From positions 277,133 through 341,132 of the forward strand of contig BPJG01000001.1 of NCBI GenBank assembly GCA_026004495.1: 64,000 nucleotides of DNA. The letters are read 5' to 3'. The position numbers and the translations under genes are program-made. Positions 1 through 35,497 of the stretch are shown one piece after another (the stretch's first letter is position 1; each line of letters starts with the position of its first letter). This DNA comes from Candidatus Parcubacteria bacterium. Lineage in GTDB: Bacteria; Patescibacteriota; Minisyncoccia; UBA6257; HR35. Under the pieces are notes generated by a model, which ran no database searches, was not told the DNA's origin, and saw only the letters and a program-made list of their open reading frames with translations.

Positions 1-635
1 ATTTCCTGATTTACTTTTATCTTCTGAATTTTTTTAAGTCGTCTATAACTATTAATTAAATTAATTTTTTCTTGAGTAGATAATTTTTCATCCGACACTA
101 TAAACATGTATTCGTAAACATTAATGGATTCAAAAATTTTGTACAAAAGATAAAATAATTCATCTAAAATTGGTTCTAATAGTTTTTCGGTTGCCTCTAT
201 ATACATTTTGTATTGTTTTCTTGGCTTTTCCTCGTTTATAAAATCTACTGCAAATTTAGTTAAAGCGACACTATCTATAGTTTCTCTTTTGTCAGGCGAT
301 ACTAATTCCCCTTTTGGATTATATCGATTCAGAAAACCCATTGTATCCAAATCTGGAAATATGTTCTTTTTTAATGAATTAACTGTTCCTTGTTCAATTA
401 CATTTTCTAAAACATCAACAATTTTATAATAAGTTTCACAACCTTTTTGCTTTTTACCTTTCCAGTCGCCAATATGAATTTTGAAAATAGAGGTTCCGGC
501 AATATTATTAATTGTCTTTAAAATTTCTAATACCTTATCGAAAGGCAATCTATTATGTTGCGATAAGTGTATACCTCTATAGTCTTCACGTTTTATTCTT
601 TCAAAGATATATTTTAAAAATTTATTTTGGTCCAT
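1..635 (-). CDS. Hypothetical protein, partial (N-terminal 211 aa in window). Probably the restriction endonuclease of the adjacent R-M module.
   Basis: I translated the minus strand by hand. The ATG lies at 635-633, 7 nt downstream of the methyltransferase stop at 643. The reading frame stays open to position 1 with no stop codon (MDQNKFLKYIFERIKREDYRGIHLSQ...KIKVNQE). It lies in the same orientation and is tightly linked to two methyltransferases and a controller protein. The ORF is not in the supplied track because it runs off the window. I recognise no catalytic motif, so the function is inferred from position only. Confidence 0.4.
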   Translation of the reverse strand, partial: MDQNKFLKYIFERIKREDYRGIHLSQHNRLPFDKVLEILKTINNIAGTSIFKIHIGDWKGKKQKGCETYYKIVDVLENVIEQGTVNSLKKNIFPDLDTMGFLNRYNPKGELVSPDKRETIDSVALTKFAVDFINEEKPRKQYKMYIEATEKLLEPILDELFYLLYKIFESINVYEYMFIVSDEKLSTQEKINLINSYRRLKKIQKIKVNQE

Positions 636-642
636 ATAAAAT

Positions 643-1431
643 TTATTTAGATAATTTATTCATCTCCAATAGACGCTTTTGGGCAATCTCTACATATTTT
701 CTGTTATTATCGCATCCAATAAAATTTCTATTAAGTTTTTTTGCCGCGATTGCAGTTGTTCCTATGCCGATAAAGCAATCTAATACAAGATCGCCGGGAT
801 TGCTACTTGCTTTTATAATTCTTTCAATCATATCTAGTGGCTTTGGCGTTAAGTGGGGCAATTTAGGTGTCTTTCCATTAATTTTATTTTTATGTCTTTC
901 GCTCGAAAAATGCCATACATCGGTACATAATTTACCCTTAGGATTCGGAAACCACCTTTTCCCCTTCTTAAGAATTCCTTTAATTTTAGCATGCTCTATT
1001 CTTTCTGCCGACTCATAAGGAACTCTAATTTCATCTGTATTGAATGTGTAATTATTGCTTTTCGTGAAAAATAATATTGTCTCTTGTCCATTTGTATATT
1101 TTCTTTTCGCAGCAGATAACCCATCTCTTTTATCCCAAGTTATCCAGTTCTGGAAAATTAAACTTTTTTTTATCAAGTGTTGTAATATAAAAGCCGAGTT
1201 AAAAGGAGTATTAAAAATATACAAACTTCCAGTTTTTTTAAGTTTTGGTACTAAAGAATCTATCCATTTGTAAGTAAAGTTAAGAAAATCATCATGGGAT
1301 TTAAAGGTATCCCATTTTGCTTTTTTTAAATTGTAAGGCGGATCAATTACAGCGAGATCTATTACCTCATTGTCAATCTTGCTTAAAAAATCAAAACAAT
1401 CCATTAAATAAATTTTATTTATCTTAAGCAT
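643..1431 (-). CDS. DNA methyltransferase, beta-class N6-adenine or N4-cytosine (DPPY motif)
   Basis: Motif IV VIDLAVIDPPYNL is near the N-terminus and motif I LVLDCFIGIGTTAIAA is near the C-terminus. This permuted order is typical of beta-class amino-methyltransferases (N4/N6 methylase domain). Confidence 0.85.
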   Translation of the reverse strand: MLKINKIYLMDCFDFLSKIDNEVIDLAVIDPPYNLKKAKWDTFKSHDDFLNFTYKWIDSLVPKLKKTGSLYIFNTPFNSAFILQHLIKKSLIFQNWITWDKRDGLSAAKRKYTNGQETILFFTKSNNYTFNTDEIRVPYESAERIEHAKIKGILKKGKRWFPNPKGKLCTDVWHFSSERHKNKINGKTPKLPHLTPKPLDMIERIIKASSNPGDLVLDCFIGIGTTAIAAKKLNRNFIGCDNNRKYVEIAQKRLLEMNKLSK

Positions 1432-1436
1432 ATTTA

Positions 1437-2300
1437 CTAAAATAATTGTTTTTGTTTAATCTCAGCTAATCTTAATTTTTCTTCAATAATATCTTTATAA
1501 GTTTCCATTATTTCGTAACCGACATAGTTTCGGCCTAATTCTTTAGCCACCTTTAAAGTAGTCCCAGAGCCCGCAAATGGGTCTAAAACTATATCCCCAA
1601 TAAAAGTAAATAATTTTACACATCTCCTTACAATCTCTTCTGGCATAATAGCGGAATGTTTTCCGAATGCTATATCATCTTTACCGGGAATAGGTATATT
1701 CCAAATCTGCTTGGTGTATTCTGTCCATTCTTTTTCGGTAAGTTTACTTTTTTCTCGTATTTCTTCTGGCACATTGTTATCTGGTTTTCCATCTTTCACA
1801 TATACGGTAATAAATTCACTTGTATTTTGGGCATAAAAATTTCTGGGATATGGATAACTGCCAAACATTAAATCCTTTGATGGATTAGTTCTATTCCAAA
1901 TATAGATGTCATATAAAAATAATTTTGTATTGTTCAAAATGGAATGTTCTATATCAGCGTTAATATCAAAAATATGTCTATTGTAATGAGTATTAAAATC
2001 TTTTTTAAGCATTGGCATTAAAGGAACATTAATCACTAACTTTCCATTTGGTTTTAAAACCCTTTCGCATTCTTTCCAAACTTTTAACATTTCTTTAATG
2101 TATTGTTTATAATCCTCAATATCTCCAATTTGTCCTTCTTTTTTCTCAGTGATTTTATTTACTTGATAACCATCTTTTGAGTAATCTTTTATATTAAAAT
2201 ATGGCGGTGAGGTCACTATTAAATGAATAGAATTATCCGGAATTTCAGACATATTCCTTGCATCTTTATAAAATACTTTATTTATAAAATCTTTGGTCAT
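1437..2300 (-). CDS. DNA methyltransferase, beta-class (SPPY motif, N4-cytosine-like)
   Basis: IHLIVTSPPYFNIKDY is motif IV; SPPY/SPPF is common in m4C methyltransferases. Motif I (FxGxG) appears as LDPFAGSGTTLKVA near the C-terminus. The stop lies 6 nt upstream of the next methyltransferase start. Confidence 0.85.
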   Translation of the reverse strand: MTKDFINKVFYKDARNMSEIPDNSIHLIVTSPPYFNIKDYSKDGYQVNKITEKKEGQIGDIEDYKQYIKEMLKVWKECERVLKPNGKLVINVPLMPMLKKDFNTHYNRHIFDINADIEHSILNNTKLFLYDIYIWNRTNPSKDLMFGSYPYPRNFYAQNTSEFITVYVKDGKPDNNVPEEIREKSKLTEKEWTEYTKQIWNIPIPGKDDIAFGKHSAIMPEEIVRRCVKLFTFIGDIVLDPFAGSGTTLKVAKELGRNYVGYEIMETYKDIIEEKLRLAEIKQKQLF

Positions 2301-2515
2301 ACTTTTATTAACTGGTCTAAAGAAATATCCAAAGCCTTTGCAATTTTAGCAACGACAAAAACTGAAGGTTTTTTAATAACGCCAACCTCTATCTTTGTTA
2401 ATGTTGTATAGGGGACATCAGCTTTTCGAGCTAATTCGTCCTGCGAAAGATTCTTTTTTAATCTTAATTCTTTTATTTTTTTGCCTAATAAATTATTGAC
2501 TTGTTTATTTACCAT
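2297..2515 (-). CDS. XRE-family HTH protein, probably an R-M controller (C) protein
   Basis: A 72-aa protein with a helix-turn-helix signature: LSQDELARKADVPYTTLTKIEVG. Its stop overlaps the methyltransferase start (ATGA). It sits first in the apparent operon. Confidence 0.65.
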   Translation of the reverse strand: MVNKQVNNLLGKKIKELRLKKNLSQDELARKADVPYTTLTKIEVGVIKKPSVFVVAKIAKALDISLDQLIKV

Positions 2516-2526
2516 ATTGTGATATC

Positions 2527-2555
2527 ATTAAATTGTTGACACTGCTTACTTTCAA
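2527..2555 (-). promoter_or_regulatory. Candidate sigma-70 promoter for the controller-methyltransferase operon, giving a near-leaderless transcript
   Basis: On the minus strand: TTGAAA (2555-2550), a 17-nt spacer, then TTTAAT (2532-2527). The ATG at 2515 follows about 11 nt later. A perfect palindrome TGATATCA lies at 2520-2527, between the -10 element and the ATG. Confidence 0.3.
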
Positions 2556-2589
2556 GATTATAATAACATAAAATTAAAAATCAAACAAC

Positions 2590-2815
2590 AATTTTTCGCC
2601 CGCGAAGCGGGCGTGAAGGGTGGGCAGGCTCCGAAAATTAAGCCCGCAAAAATTTAATTCATTTTTAAAGGAAAAAATTTGTCGCCCGCCCTTAAATAAA
2701 ATTAAAAAATTTTGCGGGCTTGTCCGCTAAAGGCGGACTTTCGGAGCCATGGGTGGGAATCCGCGAAGCGGATTTCTGCCCCGCCCCGCAAAGCGGGGCG
2801 GGGCAGTTCAGTCAG
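2590..2815. other. GC-rich cluster of nested hairpins of unknown function (possible structured RNA or recombination-associated element)
   Basis: Hairpins: CGCCCGC-GAA-GCGGGCG (2597-2613), ATCCGC-GAA-GCGGAT (about 2758-2772), and a 13-bp stem TGCCCCGCCCCGC-AAA-GCGGGGCGGGGCA (about 2777-2805). Long-range complementary pairs: GGCTCCGAAA (2628) with TTTCGGAGCC (2737); AAGCCCGCAAAA (2640) with TTTTGCGGGCTT (2710); plus GTCCGC-TAAAG-GCGGAC. The GCGAAGC core also recurs inside the 72-bp inverted repeats. Confidence 0.35.
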
Positions 2816-2861
2816 CGTCAGGATTTTGTTGATAGAAAGTTCTAACTTTTTCAAGTAAGTT

Positions 2862-2933
2862 CCACCATAGACGATTTGTTTCGCCCTCGCCCCTCGCTTC
2901 GCTCGGGGCTCGGGCTTCGGCGGGCAGAAAATA
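2862..2933. repeat. Left copy of a perfect 72-bp inverted repeat (IR-L)
   Basis: By manual alignment, the reverse complement of 4429-4500 is identical to 2862-2933 over all 72 positions. About 65% GC. Contains CCACCATAG, the complement of the tRNA-Glu 3' end. Confidence 0.9.
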
Positions 2934-2991
2934 TTTTCGCCGAAGGCGAAAATTCAAAGCGAAATTTTTTAAAAATTGTCGGTGTAAAAAT

Positions 2992-4551
2992 ATGATTAAA
3001 TATTTCATCTATTGTCGAAAATCAACCGAGGAAGAAGAAAGACAAATTCTGTCTATTGAGGCACAACTTCAAGAGCTTCGGGATTTTGCAAAACAAAATA
3101 ATCTTTTTGTTGTCCGCGAATTTACCGAAAAACAATCGGCCAAAGAACCGGGCCGTCCGATTTTTAATGAAATGCTTTCACGAATTGAAAAAGGAGAAAC
3201 TAATGGAATTTTAGCGTGGAATCCCGACCGCCTCGCCAGAAATTCCATTGATGGCGGACGAATTATTTATCTCGTTGATACCGGAAAAATTACCTCGCTA
3301 AAATTCCCGACTTTCTGGTTTGAGCCAACGCCACAAGGAAAATTTATGCTTTCGGTGGCTTTTGGCCAAGCCAAATATTACACCGACAATTTGAGAGAAA
3401 ACATTTTGCGAGGAATAAGACAAAAACTTCGTAGAGGAGAATTGCCGGCAAAAGCGCCACTTGGCTATTTCAATGAGCCAAGATTAAGAACAATTGAACC
3501 AGACCCAAAAACTTTTAAGAAAGTAAAACAATGTTTGGAATCTTTTGCCACTGGCGAATATACTTTAACAAAAATTCAGAGCAAAATGTTTTCTCTTGGC
3601 TTGGTTGGCAAAGACGGAAAACCTTTGCATCTTTCAACAATTCAAGGAATTTTAACCAACCCCTTTTATTATGGAATGTTTTTGTATCGTGGCGAACTAT
3701 ATCAAGGAAGCCATAAGCCAATGATTACAAAGAAACTTTTTGACAAAATACAGGAAGCACTAAAACAAAATAGTAAGCCCCGCAAAAAGCGAAAAGAAAA
3801 ACAATTTTTGTTTTTAGGTTTTGCCCGCTGTGGTGAATGTGGTTATATGATTACTGCTGAAAAACACATTAAGAAAAGCGGTTTAGAATTTGTTTATTAT
3901 CGCTGTACTAAAAAGAGCAAAACAATAAAGTGTTCACAAAATCGCTTTTTGCGGGAAGAAAAATTAGCCGAGCAAATAAAAGATTATGTTCAAAAAGTTT
4001 CTTTACCCGATGAGTGGCGAGAGAAATATCTTGCTAAAGTTAACGAGTGGGAAAAAGAAAATCTTCACTCATCAGAACTTTTCGCTCAAAATCTTAAAAC
4101 TGAATTAGAGAAAGTAAAGTCAAAAATAAATCGCCTGATGGACGCGTATCTTGAAGGCGATTTGGAATTGCCAGAATTTCAGTTAAAGAAAAACGAATTG
4201 ATGACAAAAAAGAAAGATATTGAGGAAAAATTATCTGATTTTGAGCGAAAAGGCAATCATTGGCTCGAACTCACCAGAAATTGGATAATTGAAGCCAACC
4301 AAGCCAAAAATTTCGTTTTGGAAGGTAATTTTTCAGAGATGAGAAATTTTCTACAAAAAATCGGTTCGAACCGAACAATTCGCGACAAAAAACTTACAAT
4401 AGAATTTAAAAAACCTTGGGATTACCTTTATTTTCTGCCCGCCGAAGCCCGAGCCCCGAGCGAAGCGAGGGGCGAGGGCGAAACAAATCGTCTATGGTGG
4501 CCCCAAGGGGAATCGAACCCCTATTTCCACCTTGAAAGAGTGGTGTCCTAG
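2992..4551 (+). CDS. Large serine recombinase (resolvase/integrase family)
   Basis: N-terminal resolvase catalytic motif YCRKSTEEEERQ (nucleophile Ser). A recombinase domain follows. A Cys-rich zinc ribbon: ARCGECGY...YYRCTKKSKTIKC. Coiled-coil C-terminus. Total 519 aa. The last about 40 codons are encoded by IR-R and by the antisense tRNA-Glu, so the true stop is uncertain. GC content is higher than in the flanking genes. Confidence 0.85.
   Translation: MIKYFIYCRKSTEEEERQILSIEAQLQELRDFAKQNNLFVVREFTEKQSAKEPGRPIFNEMLSRIEKGETNGILAWNPDRLARNSIDGGRIIYLVDTGKITSLKFPTFWFEPTPQGKFMLSVAFGQAKYYTDNLRENILRGIRQKLRRGELPAKAPLGYFNEPRLRTIEPDPKTFKKVKQCLESFATGEYTLTKIQSKMFSLGLVGKDGKPLHLSTIQGILTNPFYYGMFLYRGELYQGSHKPMITKKLFDKIQEALKQNSKPRKKRKEKQFLFLGFARCGECGYMITAEKHIKKSGLEFVYYRCTKKSKTIKCSQNRFLREEKLAEQIKDYVQKVSLPDEWREKYLAKVNEWEKENLHSSELFAQNLKTELEKVKSKINRLMDAYLEGDLELPEFQLKKNELMTKKKDIEEKLSDFERKGNHWLELTRNWIIEANQAKNFVLEGNFSEMRNFLQKIGSNRTIRDKKLTIEFKKPWDYLYFLPAEARAPSEARGEGETNRLWWPQGESNPYFHLERVVS
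4429..4500. repeat. Right copy of the perfect 72-bp inverted repeat (IR-R)
   Basis: Exact reverse-complement match to 2862-2933. Overlaps the last 6 nt (CCACCA) of tRNA-Glu at 4495-4500. Confidence 0.9.
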
Positions 4552-4569
4552 CCGTTAGACGATGGGGCC
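4495..4569 (-). tRNA. tRNA-Glu (anticodon UUC), CCA encoded
   Basis: Hand fold of the reverse complement: acceptor GGCCCCA/TGGGGCC; D stem GTCT/GGAC; anticodon stem CCACT/GGTGG with loop CTTTCAA; T arm AGGGG-TTCGATT-CCCCT; discriminator A followed by CCA. Confidence 0.8.
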
Positions 4570-4598
4570 TTTTTTATAACTAAAATAAATTTTTAGTG

Positions 4599-4671
4599 AG
4601 GCACGGGTGGGATTTGAACCCACGTATAACGGTTTTGCAGACCGTTTCCTAACCTCTCGGACACCGTGCCG
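4599..4671 (-). tRNA. tRNA-Cys (anticodon GCA)
   Basis: Hand fold: acceptor GGCACGG/CCGTGCC; 3-bp D stem; anticodon stem ACGGT/ACCGT with loop CTGCAAA; T arm GTGGG-TTCAAAT-CCCAC; discriminator U. No CCA encoded. Confidence 0.8.
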
Positions 4672-5047: not shown

Positions 5048-6493
5048 CTAAATAATTAGTTTATCTCCTAAATTAATAGATGTTGTCGTTTGAATAATTA
5101 AACCACAAAGTTCATCCTTTTTAACTTCATTAGTTTTTATTTTGTTTTTTTCAAGACTTATAATTTTACCCTTACCAATTACTATACCATCTCTAATAAT
5201 TAAAACACGATCATTTAATCTAAGCTCTCCATAAATAACTTTACCGCCAATTGTTTTTTTATTGAGTAATTGATTGAAAACCCCTAAAACCTCTAATTCT
5301 CCTCTAGATTTTTGTTCTTTTTGTTTAATATCAATTAAATCTTTAATTTTATCTTTAATCTCATAAATAACATTTGCTTGGATTAAAATTAAATTTAAAT
5401 TTTTAATTTCTTCATAAATATTTTGGGCAAGCTTTATATTAAAGGCAATTAAAATACTTTCTGTTTGTTTAGCCAATTTCAAATCTTCGCTGGTAATATT
5501 TCCAACATCTCCTTTAATTATTTTAATTTCTATTTTATTTTCTTTGGCTAAATTGTCTAAAATATTTAAAATCGCATCCAAAGAACCATAAAGGTCTGTT
5601 TTAATTATTAAATTTATTCTGGTATCTGTTTCTGAATCTGACGAAAAGTATATTTGTTTTTTAAAACTAATTTCTTTTTCAATTAATTCTTTTTTTATCT
5701 TATCTATTTCGCTCCTATTGATAATTTTAAATATTTCTCCGGGCTGAGGTAAATTTTCAAAACCATTAATAAAAACAGGCATCGAAGGTTTAGCTACGTT
5801 TATTCTTCTAAAGAAAACATCTTCTAAAAATTTAATTTTCCCAGATATAGTAGCTGTCGTAATATAATCCCCCGATTTAACAATTCCATCAGTTATTATT
5901 CCTAAGGATAAAATTCCTTTCTTAGAATCTTTGGTAACCTCTAAAATGTAACCTTCTCCCATTTTATTGTCATCATAATTTAAATTCAAGATATCTCCTA
6001 ATAATAAAATCAAATCCAAAAGTTCATCTATTCCCAAATTTTTAATAGCTGAAATATTAACACAAGGCACTTGTCCTCCCCATTCTTCAACGATAATCCC
6101 TAGTTCAGAAAGTTGTTTTTTTATTTTATCTGGGTTGGCATTTGGTTTATCTATTTTATTTATAGCTACTATAAAGGGTAAATTAAATTTTTTAATATAA
6201 TCTATACATTCTATAGTCTGTGGTTTAATTCCTTCATCAGCAGCGATTATTAAAATAGCTATATCAGCTATTTTTGCTCCTTTTTCCCTTAAACTAAAAA
6301 AATCAGAATGCCCTGGAGTATCAATAAATGTTATTCTTCCATTTTTATACATTATTTCATAAGCAGATACCCTTTGAGTTATTCCGCCTGATTCTTGTTG
6401 GGTTATCTTAGTATTCTGAATTGTATCTAATAATGTAGTTTTCCCATGGTCAATATGACCCAGAATAACTACAATAGGTGGTCTTTTTGTCAT
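5048..6493 (-). CDS. infB: Translation initiation factor IF-2 (short form)
   Basis: G domain: ILGHIDHGKTTLLD, DTPGH, NKID. C-terminal beta-barrel domains follow. Total 481 aa, lacking the long N-terminal extension. Confidence 0.9.
   Translation of the reverse strand: MTKRPPIVVILGHIDHGKTTLLDTIQNTKITQQESGGITQRVSAYEIMYKNGRITFIDTPGHSDFFSLREKGAKIADIAILIIAADEGIKPQTIECIDYIKKFNLPFIVAINKIDKPNANPDKIKKQLSELGIIVEEWGGQVPCVNISAIKNLGIDELLDLILLLGDILNLNYDDNKMGEGYILEVTKDSKKGILSLGIITDGIVKSGDYITTATISGKIKFLEDVFFRRINVAKPSMPVFINGFENLPQPGEIFKIINRSEIDKIKKELIEKEISFKKQIYFSSDSETDTRINLIIKTDLYGSLDAILNILDNLAKENKIEIKIIKGDVGNITSEDLKLAKQTESILIAFNIKLAQNIYEEIKNLNLILIQANVIYEIKDKIKDLIDIKQKEQKSRGELEVLGVFNQLLNKKTIGGKVIYGELRLNDRVLIIRDGIVIGKGKIISLEKNKIKTNEVKKDELCGLIIQTTTSINLGDKLII

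Positions 6494-32527: not shown

Positions 32528-35497
<2,970 letters not shown>

Follow-up and report, generated by a model that had tools for sequence, protein, structure and literature searches.

Organization of the locus

The DNA analysed here is a 64,000-nt stretch (the window) of contig BPJG01000001.1 from a Candidatus Parcubacteria bacterium, whose genome is a very AT-rich one of the Candidate Phyla Radiation (CPR, Patescibacteria). Between the left edge of the window and the 3' end of a tRNA-Glu gene, positions 1–4500 carry a restriction-modification (R-M) gene block, a small helix-turn-helix (HTH) regulator, a GC-rich hairpin cluster and a large serine recombinase (LSR) that lies between the arms of an inverted repeat, while tRNA-Cys, and after it rbfA and infB, lie on the far side of tRNA-Glu. 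A preliminary description had read positions 1–4671 as a higher-GC accessory island, and the gene content that it listed (two methyltransferases, an HTH protein, the hairpin cluster, the repeat-flanked recombinase and the tRNAs) is borne out by domain matches, a perfect 72-nt inverted repeat and folding z-scores of about −8.5. The features of the recombinase half of this region are listed below, with attachment (att) site names assigned as argued in the next section.

2536–2564, plus strand: predicted sigma-70-type promoter of consensus form, TTGACA-17-TATAAT (12/12 match), which would read into the leader, the internal attP and the LSR
2584–2557, minus strand: weaker, divergent promoter-like site, putatively for the HTH gene, recognized by sequence likeness
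2571–2817, plus strand: GC-rich hairpin leader, part of the long P-side arm that in relatives is repeated in inverted orientation at the distal end
2818–2861, plus strand: motif M, a 44-nt half-site of attP type (P), in which GTTC starts 23 nt before CCAC
2862–2865, plus strand: CCAC core of the putative internal inverted attP (M-CCAC-A), the point at which two inverted-repeat pairs overlap in relatives
2862–2933, plus strand: left arm A of inverted repeat 1, 72 nt, 100% complementary to 4429–4500; putative P' side of the internal attP
2992–4551, plus strand: LSR, an open reading frame (ORF) of 519 aa with Resolvase, Recombinase and Zn_ribbon_recom domains
4429–4500, plus strand: right arm A' of inverted repeat 1, 72 nt, 100%; putative element side of attL
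4495–4569, minus strand: tRNA-Glu(UUC), whose 3' half is the putative attB-type half-site of attL; its T-loop GTTC starts 18 nt before CCAC
4598–4670, minus strand: tRNA-Cys, outside the element

The assignment of the 519-aa product to the large serine recombinases is based on its full domain order. The catalytic domain (PF00239, E 8.6e-22) occupies residues 5–150, and the translation carries YCRKSTEEE, corresponding to the Y-x-R-x-S nucleophile motif, and PDRLARN, corresponding to the D-R-L-x-R motif. The C-terminal part matches PF07508 (E 1.8e-11) and the zinc beta-ribbon PF13408 (E 9.9e-10), residues 190–427 match the C-terminal domain of the A118 integrase (4kis, E 4.9e-10), and the NCBIfam CcrB model matches at E 2e-30, under the cutoff of that model. 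The conserved part of the protein stops near position 4428, and the remaining tail runs through arm A' into the antisense strand of tRNA-Glu.

Inverted repeat 1 greatly exceeds what chance would produce. Its right arm A' shares the terminal six bases, CCACCA, with tRNA-Glu, such that the core, GTGG at 4497–4500 of the plus strand, corresponds to C72-A73-C74 of the tRNA plus neighbouring bases. The right boundary of the element is the CCAC at 4497–4500, within the 3' end of tRNA-Glu, and tRNA-Cys does not belong to the element.

The composition of positions 1–4500 is atypical for the host when compared with a background of 2.3-kb windows (GC 0.248 ± 0.026; whole-window mean 0.264). GC is clearly raised across 2516–4500, at 0.36–0.44 (hairpin region 0.439, recombinase 0.358, z about 4–5 against background), and the interval 2516–4494 has a GC of 0.387 and a tetranucleotide distance of z = 11.4. 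The R-M block at 1–2300 has a GC of 0.289, a value reached by just 1% of background windows, a tetranucleotide distance of z = 4.2 and third-position GC (GC3) at the 91st–96th percentile. Within the leftward genes, GC is 0.30 for the HTH gene, 0.31 and 0.29 for the two methyltransferases, and host-like for the gene cut by the window edge, ORF0 (0.263 versus 0.265 for infB). The by-eye impression of higher GC in the preliminary description holds strongly for 2516–4500 and mildly (~0.29) for the R-M genes, but not for ORF0.

Attachment-site geometry in related loci

A recombinase homologue scan of species-representative genomes gave 514 matches, of which the best 80 loci (68–81% identity), located in CPR-type metagenome-assembled genomes (MAGs), were fetched; the L-numbers used here label individual fetched loci. 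A separate protein search with the window recombinase returned more than 100 clusters at 69–90% identity from many CPR lineages, and many of its recombinase-bearing matches are contigs of 1.6–2.5 kb.

The LSR is bracketed by an inverted repeat in 59 of the 80 fetched loci. The arms are usually 124, 133 or 136 nt long, begin with CCAC at their outer end and include ~60 nt from the 3' end of the conserved coding region. In the 41 loci whose arms are full-length, the two arms of a locus have a median identity of 100% to each other (22 pairs are perfect), against a median of 89% for the best match to another locus. Because identity is so much greater within than between loci, the arms evolve in concert, a pattern for which gene conversion between the repeats would be the simplest explanation. 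An assembly artefact was considered and rejected, since dozens of assemblies made independently show the same architecture with arm sequences that differ by locus. Many MAG contigs end 45–150 nt beyond the left arm, and we conjecture that a repeat exceeding assembler k-mer sizes, namely the leader and motif M described below, could be the cause.

A convergent tRNA gene adjoins the right arm in 56 loci, encoding tRNA-Ala of any anticodon in 53, tRNA-Val in 2 and tRNA-Glu in 1, with the window as a further case of Glu; all of the abutting tRNAs end in ..CCACCA or ..CCAC. The same backbone is found at different tRNAs and in unrelated contexts at 88–97% nucleotide identity. On the other side of the LSR, motif M is conserved in 37 loci, directly outside the left arm, and looks like the 3' half of a tRNA lengthened by 5 nt. 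In 55 of 57 loci the tRNA half-site has GTTC starting 18 nt before CCAC; for motif M the distance is 23 nt (36 of 37), and the window shows the same two values. In the LI (A118) integrase of a Listeria phage, attB half-sites have the zinc-ribbon motif 5 bp nearer the centre than attP half-sites do (PMC3783163). The spacings of 18 and 23 nt reproduce this 5-bp attB/attP offset, and the sites are therefore read as attL, an intact inverted attP and attR.

Distal copies of motif M were located by a position-weight scan. In 19 loci a second copy lies on the opposite strand 1.6–5.6 kb upstream and forms, together with the leader, a second inverted-repeat pair of 145–397 nt that is 94–100% identical (at least 98% in 14 of the 19). 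The distal leader and M copy ends at CCAC (CCA in L018), after which comes locus-specific sequence with ordinary host genes, and the shared core is thereby narrowed to CCAC (again CCA in L018). For L030, L004 and L013 a repeat finder gives exactly two inverted pairs; those of L030, at 2379–2677/5479–5777 and 5774–5897/7377–7500, overlap by the four bases CCAC. The order in the family is thus tRNA / CCAC / A, LSR, A' / GTGG / M', leader', cargo, leader, M / CCAC / host. At the two outer sites the non-palindromic core points the same way, as conservative insertion demands, and the half-sites are of types B/P' (at the tRNA) and P/B' (at the distal end), for which reason these sites are assigned as attL and attR, respectively; the middle site, M-CCAC-A, would then be an inverted but complete attP. 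A segment taken singly has opposed cores at its two ends and therefore could not be inserted conservatively by itself. Two nested elements, each with a palindromic attP, were rejected on the same ground, since single segments are bounded by opposed non-palindromic cores and only the outermost pair is direct. A single-strand fold-back substrate, as in CTX phage or integron attC sites, was likewise dropped, because double-strand cleavage by a serine recombinase would leave hairpin-capped chromosome ends.

These comparisons bear on where the element ends. The preliminary description had expected a direct repeat of the tRNA 3' end as the distal mark; relatives instead show an inverted hairpin leader plus the 44-nt motif ending at the 4-nt core. 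Since the window holds only the proximal boundary motif and ORF0 is cut by its edge, the left end lies beyond position 1, in agreement with the earlier placement of that boundary outside the window.

Segments of the element are found in both orientations. In four loci the tRNA adjoins the other arm, meaning that the LSR segment is flipped; their closest relatives have the usual orientation at 88–92% nucleotide identity, and similarity ends exactly at CCAC. L077 and L080, for example, are 91.6% identical in opposite orientations with similarity exactly to CCAC, and L042, L049 and L057 behave likewise against their relatives. The cargo segment is flipped in L036 and probably in L061, L021 and L016. 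Recombination within the repeats, whether RecA or the LSR carries it out, is compatible with both kinds of flip.

Presence and absence could be followed in L109, where the order is RuvB, T2SSE, TsaE, the element (tRNA 3' fragment / CCAC / A, LSR, attP, HTH, S49 ... M / CCA), a 5'-3' exonuclease and HisKA. In a related species (L119–L124, TsaE 81% identical), TsaE directly overlaps the exonuclease gene and no element is present. The attL partner in L109 (7590–7632) is the tRNA 3' fragment alone, without a complete tRNA. A search for empty tRNA sites through the Z flanks among the fetched loci gave nothing usable. One distant relative from a metagenome scan with InfB has rbfA-tRNA-Cys followed by tRNA-Leu and housekeeping genes, and is uninformative for synteny.

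Several individual loci depart from the common plan. Stray tRNA 3' fragments occur 25–50 nt beyond the distal site in L035 (~3500–3590) and L054 (~1930–2020), and in L066 (1686–1880) a full tRNA-Ala is followed by a second 3' fragment (T arm and acceptor) and then by arm A; such fragments may be footprints of earlier events. In L021 (5495–7600) the leader and M form a repeat pair (206 nt, 100%) with no repeat of arm A, and the right junction has GTTC at the attP-type 23 nt and no tRNA. In L074 (108–1674) ~1.44 kb separates the left arm from the recombinase start, compared with 100–150 nt in other loci. Some MAGs have two element copies on different contigs at different tRNAs (L002+L006, L010+L053, L028+L062 and L050+L055); the copies in L002 and L006 are only ~89% identical, so that separate acquisitions or old duplications seem more likely than a recent burst.

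Three elements lie in the rRNA-operon spacer. In L070 (7510–7942), and also in L012 and L033, the element directly follows tRNA-Ile(GAT)-tRNA-Ala(UGC) downstream of the 3' end of 16S rRNA, and no 23S gene was seen in the ~1 kb available past the distal end. Insertion at this position could contribute to the unlinked rRNA genes of CPR bacteria. The window itself holds a lone 23S rRNA gene at 32533–35487, and its rRNA genes are unlinked, since Rfam found no 16S or 5S beside it within the 64 kb.

A phage origin of the family was rejected. IMG/VR holds just two matching contigs, L097 and L098, each with a truncated N-terminal LSR fragment of 118–136 aa in the first 430 nt; the fragment stops abruptly, so the gene looks disrupted, and is followed by a 238-aa ORF, an ORF of the size of an N6/N4-like methyltransferase and a transposase-like ORF.

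Cargo genes and the HTH regulator

The leftward genes at this end of the window are the following:

3–635, minus strand: ORF0, cut by the window edge (N-terminal 211 codons); third gene of the cargo cassette and candidate type IIS-like endonuclease
643–1431, minus strand: N6/N4 DNA methyltransferase 1, 262 aa, cargo (PF01555, E 2.4e-65)
1437–2300, minus strand: N6/N4 DNA methyltransferase 2, 287 aa, cargo (PF01555, E 1.9e-51)
2297–2515, minus strand: XRE-type HTH_3 regulator, 72 aa, backbone; first gene of the leftward cargo operon (PF01381, E 6e-17)

The block formed by methyltransferase 2, methyltransferase 1 and ORF0 is colinear with a cassette of Candidatus Altiarchaeum. The match is between window positions 1–2300 and L103 (2255–5083, Candidatus Altiarchaeum hamiconexum, a DPANN-associated archaeon), and both hosts come from groundwater-type samples. 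Identity is 73% at the DNA level and, for the proteins, 78% for methyltransferase 2, 79% for methyltransferase 1 and 67% for ORF0. Such identity between a CPR bacterium and an archaeon points to a recent inter-domain transfer of the R-M unit. Because the Altiarchaeum cassette has neither the LSR nor the XRE HTH, the R-M block is regarded as an independently travelling unit that was captured as cargo.

The preliminary description named the partial gene as a putative endonuclease. ORF0 has no Pfam or NCBIfam match; ~450 nt of the gene fall left of the window, and homology to a 360-aa Altiarchaeum protein begins at codon 30 (~position 548). A structure model of this 360-aa homologue has a pLDDT of 69 overall and below 50 for residues 235–311, so that the catalytic part is poorly modelled, and it gives a weak Foldseek match to the type IIS recognition domains of N.BspD6I and BpuJI (E ~0.02, TM 0.41). 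With the cassette gene order and this weak fold match, ORF0 is a plausible but not proven endonuclease candidate, and the two PF01555 methyltransferases, as found in type II/IIS R-M systems, fit an asymmetric (type IIS) recognition site.

In the same description the HTH protein was taken to be the controller of the R-M system. Homologues of it (40–79% identity) lie 290–760 nt upstream of the recombinase in ~19 loci, at the inner edge of one leader copy, divergent from the promoter-like element and heading a tight operon. Because these homologues lead cargo other than R-M genes in other loci, the HTH gene is a backbone gene of the element, tied to the recombinase rather than dedicated to an R-M system. 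The HTH stop and the start of methyltransferase 2 share 4 nt (ATGA), and in the window the protein may still act as a controller of the R-M operon that it overlaps. No C-box was identified, although no systematic C-box search was made. A palindrome, TGATATCA (2518–2525), lies just upstream of the HTH start within the divergent promoter region (2516–2590), and TGATA/TATCA-like repeats resembling TGATATCA occur in the aligned region of other loci; these may be operators.

Cargo differs between elements with near-identical backbones and in many cases consists of R-M or other defence genes. At least one DNA methyltransferase is carried by 7 of the 19 delimited elements, and 4 of these 7 also have a recognizable restriction enzyme. 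Loci with R-M-type cargo are the following:

L004: C5 methyltransferase, R.HinP1I and an OLD-family nuclease
L013: two methyltransferases, a DpnII-like enzyme and OLD
L016: TaqI and a methyltransferase
L030, L036, L070 and L072: at least a DNA methyltransferase

Other cargo comprises a two-component system, transporters, an S49 peptidase, APH with an Erm-like methylase, and LD-carboxypeptidase.

Model for the element and alternative explanations

What kind of element would produce two inverted-repeat pairs that meet at a single core beside a tRNA? We consider it likely that positions 1–4500 are the tRNA-proximal part of a small element that was inserted by the LSR at the 3' end of tRNA-Glu and that carries R-M genes as cargo. 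The comparison with the 80 related loci supports the earlier suggestion of an integrated mobile element beside a tRNA, and the element belongs to what is apparently an undescribed and widespread CPR family with a spare inverted attachment site; open-access full-text literature yielded no description of the family, nor of any integrated LSR element in which an inverted attP is kept.

According to this model, the LSR would insert an element of ~4.5 kb or more in total at the tRNA-Glu 3' end through the CCAC core by attP × attB recombination. By analogy with the 19 relatives, attR (leader and M / CCAC / host) is expected just left of the window. Integration would split one of two identical attP regions, which would be why each repeat pair stops at the core. 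Excision by attL × attR recombination would release a circle in which two inverted attP regions of 270–530 bp separate the LSR segment from the cargo segment. The divergent promoter, from which transcription would cross the leader and enter the LSR, would be repressed by the HTH protein; gene conversion would keep the arms identical, and the LSR segment and the cargo segment could each flip between their own repeats.

Several points weigh against this interpretation. All of the att assignments derive from sequence geometry, and the inner half-sites (A and its counterpart Z) show little conserved motif of zinc-ribbon type. The distal end is not in the window, whose 64 kb contain a single M copy, and the window arm A is 72 nt compared with 124–136 nt in relatives. 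Membership of the R-M cassette in the element is judged by its position and by the 4-nt overlap with the backbone HTH gene, and the cassette occurs in an archaeon without any LSR. The InfB-based metagenome scan gave no close relative that could show an empty tRNA-Glu site, the nearest InfB being 43% identical. Finally, we know of no role that standard serine-integrase rules would give to a spare intact attP in an integrated element, and such a site would be hazardous if the LSR were expressed.

This last difficulty raises the question of whether the spare inverted attP and the two long homogenized repeat pairs are a functional design rather than a by-product, which we regard as doubtful yet worth formulating. 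In one option the recombinase and cargo segments are flipped independently by an LSR whose site selectivity may be relaxed; LSR expression would then toggle between the HTH-controlled promoter and read-through from the tRNA, and cargo orientation would toggle as well. A second option is that the excised circle, having two inverted attP regions, integrates through either site. If a functional design were true, the family would represent a serine-recombinase counterpart of 2-micron or shufflon logic in a minimal CPR cargo shuttle.

An alternative hypothesis is that the locus is a resident DNA-inversion switch, Hin-like but driven by an LSR, that flips its own segment and perhaps the cargo, in which case the locus would not be mobile and the R-M genes would be what is switched. 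Perfect inverted repeats around the recombinase, related elements in both orientations relative to the tRNA (L077/L080; L042, L049 and L057), the flipped cargo of L036 and an outside promoter that reads into the segment would all be accommodated by such a switch. However, the outermost sites are direct and have half-site types like those of attL and attR, the same backbone occurs at different tRNAs and in unrelated contexts, cargo is variable, and related species differ in presence or absence of the element. Moreover, inversion leaves the junction sequences unchanged, so little would be switched except the orientation of the recombinase gene. We therefore hold a resident switch to be improbable, and flipping may be a side activity of a mobile element.

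A further hypothesis sees more in the hairpin cluster than a DNA arm of attP: the consensus promoter would drive a structured non-coding RNA that acts together with the recombinase, for example in choosing targets or in regulation. The perfect promoter does face the cluster, and promoter-like elements align at the same position in L030, L040 and L044. Folding z-scores, computed against dinucleotide shuffles, are −8.6 (plus strand) and −8.4 (minus strand) for 2566–2995; across loci, leaders of 150–400 nt are structured in 19 of 23, somewhat more strongly on the transcribed strand (median z −4.6 versus −3.0 on the other), and hairpin positions are kept though the sequences differ. Rfam searches (gathering thresholds and E-values) of the window and 11 loci returned only tRNAs, rRNA and chance matches and no leader family, as would be expected of a new RNA. 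Against this, the loops are unconserved and present in both polarities (e.g., TCC and GGA), the primary sequence is barely alignable between loci, a second DNA copy of the region stands at the distal end and is directed into host sequence, and serine integrases need no RNA. A dedicated RNA function is for these reasons very improbable.

Two further observations concern the leader. In L036 a small hairpin loop is flipped between the two leader copies (589–677 and 5541–5627), the type of event expected from recombination within palindromes. A plus-strand ORF that recurs across leader and arm in GC-richer loci was set aside as probably spurious; it runs antisense to the 3' end of the LSR gene, and the window lacks it.

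Least probable of all is that only the cassette at 2862–4500 is mobile, as an insertion-sequence-like unit with long terminal inverted repeats and a tRNA 3'-end target next to unrelated R-M and HTH genes: the arms with their identical ends do resemble terminal inverted repeats, the ORF enters the right arm, a feature of many insertion sequences, elements often cease to be similar in nucleotide sequence near the arms or M, and the R-M cassette exists independently in an archaeon, but the opposed, non-palindromic junction cores (CCAC and GTGG) preclude conservative serine-recombinase insertion of this segment alone, arm A is never without M and the leader (37 loci), which are repeated beyond the cargo, and no locus was seen with arm A joined straight to unrelated host DNA.

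The mobile elements of CPR bacteria are poorly known, and genetic tools for these organisms are lacking. The family described here is present in at least 80 species-level genomes plus many metagenomic contigs, and it appears to rank among the main carriers of small cassettes in CPR genomes, with R-M, defence, resistance or transporter genes. Its members are natural serine integrases with readable att sites and a predictable, universally present target (tRNA-Ala, Val and Glu 3' ends), which makes them candidates for genome engineering. The long perfect repeats may account for CPR assembly breaks beside tRNA-Ala genes, and the retained inverted attP would depart from the textbook life cycle of serine integrases.

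Comparison with known systems

The closest enzymatic parallels are the serine integrases of A118 (LI), phiC31, Bxb1 and SPbeta (SprA), which have the same three-domain structure with a coiled coil; the C-terminal domains of the window protein match those of A118. As in phage systems, the sites are short with a small core, attB and attP half-sites are offset by 5 bp, and relatives are flanked by direct attL and attR. Unlike them, the family in the window targets tRNA 3' ends, repeats 270–530 bp around the site instead of ~50 bp, and keeps a second, complete and inverted attP at which two perfect inverted-repeat pairs meet at one core. The CPR element is also small (~4–8 kb) and has no phage or conjugation genes, and no directionality factor was identified in it.

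Tyrosine-integrase islands linked to tRNAs, and the tycheposons of Prochlorococcus, likewise place an integrase beside a tRNA, carry variable accessory or defence cargo and vary in presence between genomes. In contrast to these, the CPR element has a serine recombinase, shares a 4-nt core in place of a direct repeat of the tRNA 3' end, and has ends marked by inverted copies of element sequence. The SCCmec-type cassettes (CcrAB/CcrC) are likewise small, are moved by LSRs and insert at the 3' end of a conserved housekeeping gene, whereas the CPR element has a single recombinase gene, a tRNA target instead of rlmH, an internal inverted attP and CPR hosts.

As in the Hin/Gin/Cin systems and yeast 2-micron FLP, the recombinase lies between inverted repeats that hold the presumed sites, and both orientations occur in nature. 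The Hin type comprises small serine recombinases dependent on an enhancer and Fis, and FLP is a tyrosine recombinase on a plasmid. The CPR unit differs in having an LSR of 479–519 aa with a zinc ribbon, in repeats (72–136 nt and 145–397 nt) that would be split copies of the attP region, and in the insertion of the whole unit in the chromosome. The cargo of the window resembles type II/IIS R-M systems with a C protein in that a small HTH gene precedes and overlaps an operon of two methyltransferases and a probable endonuclease; it departs from them in that this HTH family leads non-R-M cargo elsewhere and the homologous Altiarchaeum cassette has no HTH. In lifestyle, the element thus resembles tRNA-linked genomic islands and SCC-type cassettes, and its likeness to Hin and 2-micron is limited to a recombinase bracketed by inverted repeats.

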